Below are positions 15,170-19,545 of a DNA stretch of 64,000 nucleotides, one piece after another. The stretch lies in NCBI GenBank assembly GCA_963666285.1, contig OY762711.1, one strand, 5' to 3'. The notes beneath the pieces were generated by a model, which was given only the letters and a program-made list of their open reading frames with translations, had not been told where the DNA came from and made no database searches. The number at the start of each line of letters is the position of its first letter. The first letter of the stretch is position 1. Source of the DNA: Sedimentisphaerales bacterium (GTDB lineage Bacteria; Planctomycetota; Phycisphaerae; Sedimentisphaerales; SM23-30). Both the position numbers and the translations under genes were made by a program.

Positions 15170-15782
15170 TATTTCTAACTCCGGATTCTGACTCTTGACC
15201 TGTAACGGAAAAGGCCTGGAATAGCCCCTTGGCATAATAAAAATTATACCCAGGCCTGTTGCGTTAAAAGTCGTTCGTCATATGCAAAAAACTCACTGGC
15301 GGTCAAGCCAATATTATCAACAAAATATTACTAACATAGCAAAGCTTTGTCAATCTTTTTGAACTATTCACTATTTTCGGCAAAAAACACTGCCCAACTT
15401 TCACATAAAACTACTAAAGTGCAAAAAGCGAGATAACCATTTATTTTACAAACAGTTAAGTAAATACCGAGCTTACAAAAATGTCAATATAAAGCTATTA
15501 TCAACTTAGGAGCAAATACCAAAAATGATAAAAACGGGAACATTTACAGCTAATATCGGTCTAATAGAATCATACAATAAAATCCATATCAGCAAAAACA
15601 TTATCAGCTATATAGCTCAAACTAATCAATGGGAACCTGAATGGACTTTGGCACCAGATTACACTAAAGTGACGGCTGGCAACTATATTTGAATAAAAAA
15701 CAATTGATACCTCAGGTTTATACTGATAGAATAATTTTGTGTTTATGATTCTTATTTTAATTTTGGCTTCGAGAAAACTAAT

Positions 15783-17021
15783 ATGAAAAGACTGTTAACA
15801 ATTGCATTATTATTACTAACGTTTTTTGAGGCAGGTTCTCTATCTGCAGCCCTTCCGGAGGGAAAAATCAATCTGCAAGTTCTTTATGTTGGTTTGCCCG
15901 ATACTGACCGTACCAAAAGCTTCAAATCTCTACTGGAAGAGCATTTCACCAAAGTAGCTATTGCCGATTATAACACATTCCAGGAAAGCCAGACGGCAGG
16001 TGCAGATGTGGTTATCCTGGACAAAGACGGTGTAGAGTGGAAAGAGCTGAACATATCATTATCTGACGAATACAGTAAGCCTACTATAACAATCGGCACT
16101 CCGGGTGCTTTCTGGTGTCACCATAAAAACCTTAAAATAAGGTATATGTGAAACTGTTTAAGAGATGCGGCTCATGTTGAGTCGCTTGAGCATGCTGTTT
16201 TTAACCAGCCATATAAAATTAAATTTGAATGGGAAACTGTCAACACCCCGGAATCTTATAAGAAACACAAGCCGGACAATGTAACGCTGGGCGAAAAGAT
16301 GAAAATCTGGCAGATTCAGGATTCCGGGAAAGGTGCCGGCAGCGGCGGAACCGTATCATATGCAATTGAACCGGGAATAGACAGCATAGATGCCGAGCAG
16401 ATAATGTATGGATATGCACCGGGCAAGGCATATACTGCAACCGCTATCCTACGACATGGCAATTTCCTGCAATGGGGATACAGCTGCGAACCGGCTAGAA
16501 TGACCGAATCCGGGAGACGGCTGTTTATTAACTGTATTGTATATATTGCTAATTTTAACGGTAAGAAACCTTTTGTTACCAACCAATGCCAATCTCCGGA
16601 TAAAGTAATAACTTATATTGGATATCGAATAACAGGCAATCGCAGTCTGGATGTATATTGCCCAAAGGAAATGATTGATAAGTTTTCGCCCTCTGAACTG
16701 ATAAAAGAATACAAAAACAATAAAAGCATGTTCTATAAAGACGAAAACAACCTCTACTGTATTGATTATGAGCTTAAAGAACTTGGCTTTCCGAGCAATA
16801 GCGAAATTAACAATCTGGATATTTTTATCGACATGCTAAAAGACAATGAAAAAGCACAAACCGGGAAAAAAATGCTGCAGCGATATACCGGCAAAGAGTT
16901 TGATACATATAAAGACGCAAAAGAATGGCTCGACACAAACCGGGAATACCTGTTGTTTATACCAAGGTGTAATTATAAATTTGTTGTGCTGCCGGACAAA
17001 GTGGAAAAACTGCTAAAATAA
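15783..17021 (+). CDS. Putative secreted selenoprotein (412 aa, in-frame TGA at codon 123, U-x-C motif); joins track ORFs 15783..16151 and 16299..17021
   Basis: Both ORFs are in the same frame; the only stop between them is TGA 16149-16151; readthrough gives ...IRYM-U-NCLRDAAHVESLEHAVFNQPY...; a hairpin follows the TGA; N-terminal signal peptide. Confidence 0.75.
16167..16185 (+). promoter_or_regulatory. Candidate bacterial SECIS element
   Basis: GCGGCTCA-TGT-TGAGTCGC forms an 8-bp stem with one G-U pair and a G-containing apical loop 23 nt after the UGA. Confidence 0.6.
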
Positions 17022-17047: not shown

Positions 17048-17692
17048 ATGGGATATATAATAGTAATAATAATTACAATAGTGTTAAGTATCGTGGTAAT
17101 GTCTGGATGCAAGAAAGATGATGAACATACTAACACTAAACCATACAATTCCCAGACAGTGGAACCAGTCAGAATCAAAGACATTGAGATTACTAGAGAG
17201 AAAATATCAAAAAAATTAGCAAATCTTAAGGCACCGTTAAAAAGAGAACAAATAATAACCGCCATGTGCTATGCAGTAGCAGCACCTCCTAAAACAGCTG
17301 AATATATCTGCCCTGAATGCGGCTATAAAACTCAATATTCCTATGATGCGAGCGAATCTAATACCGGTAACCGTTATAACACTATCACAACAATTGCCTG
17401 GGAAATTGATACTTGCCGCAGGTATATTGAGATGATTAATCAAACCGAAATATCACTTGACGAATCGCAGTTTTGTTCACACTGTTCGCCAGAAATAAAT
17501 GAGCCCAAACTGGTTCTGGTAATCGAATATCCCGACCTGAAATATCGTTACGAGAATATACAATCAGCAGACCTTGAGCTGATATTAGACTTTTTAACCG
17601 GCAAAGAACTTGATGATGAAAACCAGCCAATATATGACAAGAAAAAACATTTGAGTGAATTATTAGGTATTGAACCAGAGGGGAAAAAATGA
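17048..17692 (+). CDS. Cys-rich lipoprotein of unknown function (AMCY, CPxCG, FCxHC), paralog 1
   Basis: Lipobox VVMSG-C; TAMCYAVAAPPKTAEYICPECG; ISLDESQFCSHCSP; clear similarity to the next gene. Confidence 0.8.
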   Translation: MGYIIVIIITIVLSIVVMSGCKKDDEHTNTKPYNSQTVEPVRIKDIEITREKISKKLANLKAPLKREQIITAMCYAVAAPPKTAEYICPECGYKTQYSYDASESNTGNRYNTITTIAWEIDTCRRYIEMINQTEISLDESQFCSHCSPEINEPKLVLVIEYPDLKYRYENIQSADLELILDFLTGKELDDENQPIYDKKKHLSELLGIEPEGKK

Positions 17693-18447
17693 TTTATATA
17701 ATCGGTTTTATCGCTACTGTTTTTTTGAGCATAATAATATTTTCCGGATGTAAAACTAATACAAACCCCAATACCCATCGCAATAGGGATACAAACACCA
17801 CATTAGCTAAACCAGAAAATAACAATTCTTTCACAATAATAGAAATAGCAAAAAAACTTAAAAATCTTAAAGAACCTTCTGAATACCGAGAAACAAGATC
17901 TGCTATGTGTTACTACACAGCAGGTCCACCAACTGCTTCTGAATATATTTGTCCTACCTGTGGCAACAAAACATTATATACCTTAGAAGATTATCAAGAT
18001 AGAATCAATTCTTCTCTTGCTATCGATAATAATTTAACTCTATATAACATCACCACAATGATTGGAGGAGAAATTGCATCTTGTCATCGCTATATTGAAA
18101 TAATCAGCAAACCAGAGATATCATTAGATGAATCTCAATTTTGTTTACATTGTTCCCCTGGAACAGTAACTCCTCAACTGGTACTAGTAATCAAATACTC
18201 CCAAAAAGAACATCGTTATGCCGGAGTAACCAGTGAAGATTTCAATCTTCTTTCTAAGTTTTTTGAAGGTAGTGAATTATATTATGAAGACTGCCATGTG
18301 TTGGATTGTAAAAAACATTTGGCGAAATTATTAGGCGTCGATCTTTTATTGTTATCAGAAGAAAGAGAGTTGCAAAGCCAGAATTCTACTATCGAAGATT
18401 TCAATAAGCACTTAAATGAAATGTTAAAATTCAAGGAAACAGAATAG
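17689..18447 (+). CDS. Cys-rich lipoprotein of unknown function (AMCY, CPxCG, FCxHC), paralog 2
   Basis: Lipobox IIFSG-C; SAMCYYTAGPPTASEYICPTCG; ISLDESQFCLHCSP; ATGA overlap with the previous gene. Confidence 0.8.
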   Translation: MIYIIGFIATVFLSIIIFSGCKTNTNPNTHRNRDTNTTLAKPENNNSFTIIEIAKKLKNLKEPSEYRETRSAMCYYTAGPPTASEYICPTCGNKTLYTLEDYQDRINSSLAIDNNLTLYNITTMIGGEIASCHRYIEIISKPEISLDESQFCLHCSPGTVTPQLVLVIKYSQKEHRYAGVTSEDFNLLSKFFEGSELYYEDCHVLDCKKHLAKLLGVDLLLLSEERELQSQNSTIEDFNKHLNEMLKFKETE

Positions 18448-18450
18448 ATA

Positions 18451-19545
18451 ATGAATAGTTCCAGGCGTTTAGCGAAATCGTTTTTACCGTCAGCTGCGGT
18501 ACTGGAGCTGACATATAAATGTAATCATAATTGTCTTTTTTGCAGTTGTCCGTGGCTGGACGATAAGAATGATTTTGACATTCGTGAAGAGCTTAACCTT
18601 AATCAGTGGAAAGAAATAATTGACAAGTCATGCGACATGGGAATAACCAGTTTTTCATTTACCGGCGGTGATCCACTAATGAAAGATTGCGTAATTGAAA
18701 TTATAGAATATACTGCCAATAAAGAAGTTGAATACATCAAATCAGAAAATGGCATTCTTACCACTTCACACGCCAAGCCTAATATGTATCTAATTACAAA
18801 CGGCAAAGCTATGACAGATGAAATACTTGATCTATGTTTGAAACATAATATGGATATCGGCATGTCACTTCCAGGTTTAGAAAGTTTTAAGACTCATACC
18901 GGGGGGGATGTCGATACTATACTAAACTGGTTCAAAAAAGCCAACCAGAAAGGTGTCACTACCACAGTTGGCATAACAGTAACGGCATTAAATATAGATG
19001 AACTGTTCGAAACAATATCAACAGCATTTATTGCCGGGGCCGATCGCCTGCTGCTTAACAGATTTCTTCCAGGTGGAAGAGGTATAAAACATGCAGATAA
19101 ATTATCAATTACAGCCGACCAGATCGTCCAAATGCTGGATACCGCAGAAGAGGTATTAAAACTTGCCAATCGATATGGAAGCGTAGGGACAGAGCTGCCA
19201 AAATGTATTATAGGCGAAAAAGAATATAAAAGATTAGAAGTTGGAACGACATGTGCTGCCGCTCGCGGTTTTTTTGTTATCGACCCATCAGGATATATTC
19301 GCAACTGTAATCATTCTCCTATTCGACTGCAGCATTATACTAATATTAACGATACCAAACTAGACCCCTATTGGAAATTTTTTACTACAAGAAAATATCT
19401 GCCAAAGAGCTGCCTGGGATGTAAATATATGCATTGCTGTGATGGAGGATGCCGGGAAGCTGCCCATATAATAGGCGGAAATATCGATTCATTAGACCCG
19501 GTATTAATCGTCAAAGACGGTAAAACCCAACCATACTGGCAATAA
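18451..19545 (+). CDS. Radical SAM/SPASM domain protein
   Basis: CNHNCLFC (CxxxCxxC), FTGGDP; SPASM cysteines CAAARG...GYIRNC...CLGCKYMHCCDGGC. Confidence 0.93.
   Translation: MNSSRRLAKSFLPSAAVLELTYKCNHNCLFCSCPWLDDKNDFDIREELNLNQWKEIIDKSCDMGITSFSFTGGDPLMKDCVIEIIEYTANKEVEYIKSENGILTTSHAKPNMYLITNGKAMTDEILDLCLKHNMDIGMSLPGLESFKTHTGGDVDTILNWFKKANQKGVTTTVGITVTALNIDELFETISTAFIAGADRLLLNRFLPGGRGIKHADKLSITADQIVQMLDTAEEVLKLANRYGSVGTELPKCIIGEKEYKRLEVGTTCAAARGFFVIDPSGYIRNCNHSPIRLQHYTNINDTKLDPYWKFFTTRKYLPKSCLGCKYMHCCDGGCREAAHIIGGNIDSLDPVLIVKDGKTQPYWQ

Follow-up and report, generated by a model that had tools for sequence, protein, structure and literature searches.

An apparent pair of broken genes from a Sedimentisphaerales bacterium is almost certainly, judging from the sequence, a single gene for an exported selenoprotein in which an in-frame UGA is read as selenocysteine (Sec). 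The gene lies at 15783-17021 on the forward strand of the window, by which we mean the whole 64,000-nucleotide stretch of contig OY762711.1 that was analysed. It forms one 412-codon frame whose sole TGA is codon 123 (16149-16151), in the context Y-M-U-N-C-L. Insertion of Sec at codon 123 through SelB and a SECIS hairpin is predicted with very high confidence from the sequence evidence. The protein itself is predicted, with a probability of about 0.6 and in part from structure models, to be an exported thiol/selenol oxidoreductase that is recharged by DsbD. The recoding mechanism is a known one; as far as tested, the family, the position of Sec on its fold and the proposed link to DsbD are new.

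Reading frame and SECIS hairpin

Translation table 11 splits the frame into two ORFs, at 15783-16151 (122 aa) and 16299-17021 (240 aa). A preliminary description of this DNA had merged them into a 412-aa protein with one UGA and a frame open to 17021, and the same frame was obtained when the sequence was re-read; it is matched over its full length by homologues. No ATG, GTG or TTG start was found between the UGA and 16299, so with a true stop 49 conserved codons (124-172) would go untranslated. These codons have an in-frame coding score of 0.139, against 0.114 and 0.104 in the rest of the gene, and the other five frames score negative. The signal peptide that had also been proposed was judged by eye (M-K-R, a hydrophobic core and S-L-S-A) and by hydropathy; it is probably cleavable, spans approximately residues 1-22 (15783-15848, forward strand), and has counterparts in the N-termini of homologues. 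Upstream, a weak sigma-70-like promoter match (15704-15732, forward strand; a consensus match only, 10/12 with an extended TG) carries little weight, since 27 such sites were found where 16.9 were expected.

The UGA is followed by an in-frame hairpin, GCGGCUCA-UGU-UGAGUCGC, at 16167-16185 on the forward strand. Its loop (16175-16177) begins 23 nt past the UGA, as the preliminary description had it, and holds a G in loop position 2 (16176), above an 8-bp stem with a folding energy of -10.5 kcal/mol. The bacterial SECIS consensus model sets four constraints, with a spacing of 16-37 nt, and the hairpin satisfies all four as they are given in the consulted parts of PMC13188914. The stability is modest (z -2.44 for 16152-16195, where 5 of 200 shuffles were equally stable, and z -1.49 for 16149-16200), and 73 of the 4054 in-frame TGAs of the source genome pass the same hairpin filter. 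Taken alone, the hairpin is weak evidence; in the sequence comparisons, it exceeds chance through its conservation.

That conservation centres on the loop. The G located 25 nt after the UGA is invariant in 92/92 distinct Sec sites, though codon 132, to which it belongs, may be Gly, Ala or Val, and in the Cys forms a residue with a G-first codon occupies the position in just 35/83. The stem occurs in three registers, with loops of 3, 5 or 6 nt and a constant loop start at +23. It has at least five stacked pairs in 79/92 Sec sites, and at 13/92 an uninterrupted 5-pair stem was absent in all three registers. Covariation was evaluated in 65 sequences, chosen as those that share the register of the window hairpin together with their near kin: of 520 stem cells, 97.9% are paired, against 28-54% in slid controls, and two-sided changes were observed in three of the eight stem pairs (17 cells). 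The shuffle control overstates the signal, since the window sequence itself supplied the structure and the 65 sequences are kin.

Conservation of the Sec/Cys site

Homologues were found to carry either TGA or Cys at codon 123, the pattern for which the preliminary description had proposed looking. It had named a genome without Sec machinery, or homologues with Trp and no conserved TGA, as signs of a nonsense mutation or sequencing error; both were looked for, and neither was observed. In metagenomes, TGA at the site with Cys at +2 was found in 79/79 kept loci (from the best 80 of 206 confirmed matches), all close kin of one another, and in these 79 the TGA is the only stop inside each alignment. 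It was also present in 32 loci from 31 other genomes (28 phylum and four class loci). The TGA-bearing loci lie at 24-54% identity.

The class search covered 301 genomes, five of which matched the window protein (P0001). Its family loci, from G261, G159 (two loci) and G223, have TGA at the same codon and Cys at +2 in all four cases. Two weak class matches (L014 and L016) are distant domains that lack the motif. When 401 phylum genomes were searched with a profile, 33 of the 110 matches covered the core domain and the others only a fused DsbD_N part. The motif U-x-C was seen in 28 of 29 fetched phylum loci of other genomes, a set that leaves out three core matches and includes one locus (L042) with a frameshift further on. 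At another locus, L040 (G558:C93), both motif cysteines are lost, in a genome that still has SelA.

Among proteins, 698 library representatives match, and 95 of the 162 homologues taken from the library span the site. Cys stands there in 90/95, C-x-C is present in 89/95, and Trp was found in 0/95. One or both cysteines are lacking in 6/95, with the rest of the protein kept. These six and L040, otherwise intact, indicate that the fold has a role without the cysteines. Database proteins are also cut at the site, as expected of a split gene: residue 121-122 is the last in five N-terminal pieces, many C-terminal ones begin at 125-127, and MGD0768239.1 begins just after the motif. Near homologues carry the name Tepidisphaeraceae, and the public name of members is "hypothetical protein". 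The motifs W-Y-C-L-C-L...A-H...H-P-I-F..P and R-H-G-N-F..W-G, which the preliminary description had ascribed to Bacteroidota relatives, were borne out in proteins from Bacteroidales (P0047) and Flavivirga (P0044), and Flavivirga WP_303308042.1 is a Cys homologue from a named Bacteroidota. A contig scan with P0001 returned one weak 35-residue match, which falls short of the site. A contig of sequencing run X4 keeps the TGA with 28 letters on one side and was left out of the counts.

The Sec and Cys forms interleave in a tree of 136 sequences (53 Sec, 78 Cys and five other, with every fourth metagenome locus included), with nine changes between Sec and non-Sec against a mean of 42 when shuffled. 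The tree was built with FastTree and midpoint-rooted, with weak deep supports; it shows interleaving but no ancestral state.

Protein fold and a proposed link to DsbD

The structure model of the window protein has a pLDDT of 93. Residues 28-260 (15864-16562, forward strand) are modelled as a class I glutamine amidotransferase (GATase)/ThuA-like domain bearing the U-x-C loop, with the best structure match to 4jqs (VIA Z 12.8, rmsd 4.1, 194 aligned), followed by 3rht (Z 12.6), 2gk3 (Z 12.1) and, in Foldseek, the GATase of GMP synthase, 2a9v (E 2.4e-6). The fold is common to these structures (rmsd 3.0-4.1, 175-194 aligned), but the window protein is only 8-17% identical to them, has no Pfam match and no Cys-His-Glu triad, and adds a C-terminal domain, a signal peptide and a redox-type motif. 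The likeness to ThuA is structural only, with no Pfam match to PF06283 for P0001 or 71 homologues; an Atlas feature score of 0.82 for ThuA-like in one homologue is a lead only, and the Atlas clusters nearest a Cys homologue are unnamed and have no common Pfam family. In the model, the UGA (Sec123)-Asn-Cys125 motif (16149-16157, forward strand) sits on the loop that follows the elbow helix.

The C-terminal domain (residues 261-412; 16563-17018, forward strand) is modelled as mainly helical, with a pLDDT of 91.7 and conserved L-x-R-Y-T and W-x-x-W motifs. It had no Foldseek match at E<=0.001 and a best VIA Z of 3.6, and this lack of a structural match does not show that its fold is new. Searched by sequence, the PDB gave matches only to the fused DsbD_N part of homologues. 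In a subgroup with approximately 50% identity to the window protein, the frame closes 138-143 codons past the UGA, so that the GATase-like domain is present and the C-terminal domain is absent (L091, L095-L099, L101, L105, L106, L109, L118, L119, L124 and L129).

Domain fusions connect the family to DsbD. Among 71 scanned homologues, which were picked from 150 and are mostly the longer ones, 33 have a DsbD_N domain, 38 have no DsbD_N match, and six have thioredoxin-like domains. The Cys pair of nDsbD is kept in 31 of 34 DsbD_N domains. Sec forms are fused to an nDsbD-like domain as well (L021, L024 and L036-L039). No nDsbD domain is present in the window protein; its source genome (G000) encodes a stand-alone DsbD (C1:774932-776794) with an N-terminal Cys pair. 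At L029 (G638:C52), an nDsbD-like domain is encoded by its own gene, immediately after that for the U-x-C protein, instead of being fused.

A complex was predicted for the Cys fusion P0019, a relative 35% identical to the window protein, with its core and its nDsbD part folded as a pair. It scored 0.84 against 0.00 for the best of three controls; unlike the controls, it had an alignment of fused rows. Of solved pairs, 116 of 157 reached the score mark, as did 2 of 215 mismatched pairs. Contacts agree between the P0019 runs to at least 94%, with a partner pLDDT of at least 87. The lowest-error contacts bring residues 123-126 and K220 together with 573, 577 and 578, which include nDsbD Cys573 and Cys578, and C124, C126 and K220 of P0019 are U123, C125 and K215 of the window protein. 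The window protein has no counterpart to part of the interface (residues 303-322), an insertion in P0019, and the score may echo solved nDsbD complexes. The evidence for the proposed reduction by nDsbD is made up of the fusions and this predicted docking in a Cys relative. The DsbD clients DsbC, DsbG and CcmG have a thioredoxin fold with C-x-x-C. The family would resemble them in the Cys-to-Cys docking of nDsbD predicted for P0019, whereas the window protein has a GATase-like fold with U/C-x-C, and no thioredoxin Pfam match was found in P0001.

In the mechanism we propose, SelB on the hairpin at 16167-16185 would deliver Sec-tRNA(Sec) to UGA codon 123, and the protein would leave the cytoplasm by means of its signal peptide. 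The N-terminal GATase/ThuA-like scaffold, its triad lost, would present U123-x-C125 on the loop that follows the elbow helix, and the two residues would cycle between selenolate/thiol and selenenyl-sulfide. The selenolate would reduce or attack an extracytoplasmic substrate held by conserved polar residues. The pair would then be re-reduced by nDsbD, which is fused in many relatives and would be supplied here in trans by the DsbD of G000. C-x-C is a working redox motif in periplasmic CsgC, as described in the consulted part of PMC3173608, and in exported MauE, according to the part consulted of bioRxiv 10.64898/2026.03.05.709764; the motif is alike in these proteins, but CsgC has an Ig fold and MauE is a membrane protein.

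Seven polar residues are strictly conserved (R43, D80, K118, H137, E205, K215 and R224). On the alignments they point to a substrate-binding site, which a plain disulfide reductase leaves unexplained and which counts against a redox relay. They also suit a different selenoprotein, one in which Sec123 is the nucleophile of a hydrolase, lyase or transferase and Cys125 and nDsbD serve only to protect or rescue it from oxidation. We consider this unlikely, while taking it seriously: amidotransferases and hydrolases with a Cys nucleophile have this fold, the docking of nDsbD suits a rescue role equally, and 2 of the 71 scanned homologues are fused to hydrolase/depolymerase-like domains (P0159 and, below the cut-off, P0067). 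The place of the nucleophile argues the other way. At the GATase elbow, as placed from the secondary structure of the model rather than by residue-level superposition, the two positions after I-G (T106/P107) are variable, and Cys is not among the five commonest residues at either. The stretch that matches the His-x-Glu of the triad reads W-G-(F/Y)-S-x-x-P; a profile alignment set Q-F-H-P-E of the GATase encoded by G000 opposite it, weakly (probability 0.5%). With no conserved elbow Cys and the His-x-Glu stretch replaced, the protein is not an amidotransferase. Cys125, moreover, is conserved as well as the Sec/Cys site, which fits a redox pair better than a lone nucleophile.

The same motif, together with His131 and His137, might instead bind a soft metal or metalloid (Cu, Hg or As) in periplasmic trafficking or detoxification, with nDsbD keeping the ligands reduced. 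His is found at 137 in 122/126 aligned rows and at 131 in 75/112, U-x-C also appears in the row for the SO_0444 Cu/Zn transporter in the catalogue table of PMC13188914, and the ABC binding protein of the sel cluster is distantly SaoX-like (E 8e-12, far below the cut-off). Position 131, however, is not His in 31/83 Cys forms (often Leu, Tyr or Phe) and is Gln in some Sec forms, and no recurring metal-resistance genes were observed beside 112 family loci. We regard metal binding as doubtful, and more so than the nucleophile role, and prefer the DsbD-recharged oxidoreductase.

Comparison with known selenoproteins

P0001 matched zero Pfam and zero NCBIfam families at E<=1. The core of the homologues matched no Pfam model (71 scanned) and no NCBIfam model (54 scanned), nor any selenoprotein model at E<=0.01. 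None of the 119 families in Table 1 of a 2026 catalogue (PMC13188914) fits by the description or motif given in its row; the families of Haft and Tolstoy 2025 were compared as rows of that table, and at least two of its models were in the scanned library. No such family is among those named in the consulted portion of the deep-Sep paper (PMC12013277), and a literature search found no paper on this family. The earlier impression that the protein resembles no recognised selenoprotein family thus holds against Pfam, NCBIfam and Table 1. As far as tested, this is an uncatalogued and widespread selenoprotein family, the comparison having been made through models and catalogue descriptions rather than the sequences of BSepDB (PMC13326102).

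The gene shares with other bacterial SECIS/SelB selenoprotein genes the in-frame UGA, the G in loop position 2, the 23-nt spacing, the SelA, SelB, SelC and SelD machinery and the pairs of Sec and Cys homologues. Its U-x-C motif is common to the catalogued thioredoxin-like Sec.2 (PF13192) and the SO_0444 Cu/Zn efflux transporter (NF033936), as their rows describe them. Sec.2 is, however, a small thioredoxin-fold protein and SO_0444 a membrane transporter, and neither model matches P0001 or the scanned homologues. In a GATase, G-x-U-x-G is the nucleophile elbow. This is the motif in the catalogue's row for a Sec-bearing class I GATase-fold protein (NF004836), whereas the window protein has U-x-C about 17 residues later and its elbow is empty; no match to NF004836 was listed for P0001 or the 54 scanned homologues.

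A common selenoprotein family appears to have been missed, with the core found in 33 of 401 sampled phylum genomes and the Sec forms annotated as two "hypothetical proteins". Its Sec would stand on a scaffold and in a position absent from the catalogue rows, and the family suggests a DsbD client without the thioredoxin fold. The Cys homologues from named, cultured-type Bacteroidota make the chemistry testable without selenium.

Selenium machinery of the source genome

The preliminary description had proposed confirming selA, selB, selC and selD in the genome, and all four were found in G000, which is 97% complete. SelA (E 4e-141) and SelB are present, tRNA-Sec scores 76 bits against a cut-off of 47 and has the anticodon UCA, and SelD occurs twice, one copy having its own in-frame TGA. 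The genes selB, selA, selD and selC are clustered 49-58 kb before the window gene. Across genomes, SelA was found in 32/32 that have the family, against 289/401 in the phylum, with the caveat that the former are kin and not independent. The gene, SelA and the second Sec domain (G-U-x-x-x-C) described below were all without a match in the four closest relatives searched (G273, G297, G008 and G103), so the selenium trait is patchy within the taxonomic family.

The sel cluster (G000:C1:4437891-4446890) has selB-selA behind a 178-aa gene with G-U-G-G-T-C. On its other strand are an ABC transporter, whose binding protein is SsuA-like, a SelD with a Cys-rich N-terminal piece and a C-terminal AhpD-like domain, and then selC. 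The second SelD (G000:C1:1953363-1954280) is itself a selenoprotein, with C-A-G-U-V-G-K.

This machinery bears on how the UGA is decoded. In a few bacteria, tRNAs read UGA as Cys through SelB-like systems. That the codon stands here for another residue (Cys or Trp), or is a true conserved stop that makes two proteins, is nonetheless highly improbable. SelA and SelD are intact, and the tRNA(UCA) is scored as a tRNA-Sec; the sole tRNA-Trp has the anticodon CCA, and TGA terminates ordinary genes in G000. A true stop would cut a single domain mid-way, and in the window copy there is no restart before residue 173. A nonsense mutation or sequencing error is refuted by conservation: at 24-54% identity, 79/79 metagenome loci (from the best 80 of 206) and 32 genome loci have the same TGA.

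Neighbourhood and a putative second Sec domain

No substrate or pathway gene is conserved beside the family at 112 loci, except other Sec genes: selB was found at 11/112 and selA at 6/112. A second in-frame-UGA domain of approximately 95 aa also recurs, with the pattern (Y/F)G-U-x-x-x-(C/S)-x-x-(S/A)-W-R and its own hairpin, whose loop, UGG, lies 21 nt after the UGA. This G-U-x-x-x-C domain is mostly in proteins with signal-like or membrane N-termini. It was observed at 22/79 metagenome loci (from the best 80 of 206), on the opposite strand and upstream in 21, downstream in one, with up to three copies each, and in 16 of the 25 metagenome loci with at least 3 kb of upstream sequence.

Seven copies occur in G000, one of them directly before selA. 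Their TGAs lie outside the window on G000:C1, at 1429006 and 5361320 on the forward strand and at 4460979, approximately 4457574, 4441377, 4259769 and 498566 on the reverse strand; further loci with the domain are among entries L052-L121 and L139-L148. In the class, 51 of 301 genomes matched, with up to 11 matches per genome and nearly always one TGA. No fitting NCBIfam model was found for the three copies tested. We consider the domain, from its sequence, a putative second uncatalogued selenoprotein family, which suggests a large undercount of the selenoproteins of this lineage. As the loci are related, the link with the G-U-x-x-x-C and sel genes may reflect shared descent on a selenium island and not a shared pathway.

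Tentatively, and at somewhat less than even odds, the gene could belong, as one arm, to an extracytoplasmic selenium redox system of planctomycetes that has yet to be described. In such a system, a GATase-fold U-x-C enzyme, as a non-thioredoxin-fold client of DsbD, would work with the G-U-x-x-x-C domain, which is clustered with it and with selA and selB. Sec may then be the old state, with repeated reversion to Cys that includes a large Cys clade with Bacteroidota.

The genes directly downstream were considered as partners and rejected, as they were found beside 0/112 homologous loci and form their own cassette elsewhere. The cassette begins with two paralogous lipoprotein-like, zinc-ribbon-like proteins (17048-17692 and 17689-18447, forward strand), which have an A-M-C-Y motif and two C-x-x-C pairs and matched no family model above the cut-off. 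They are followed by a radical SAM/SPASM gene (18451-19545, forward strand). The three-gene cassette was also seen in G152 and G213, where the radical SAM proteins are 51-56% identical and neither genome matched P0001. The A-M-C-Y pair and the radical SAM protein are possibly an undescribed radical SAM protein-modification system.
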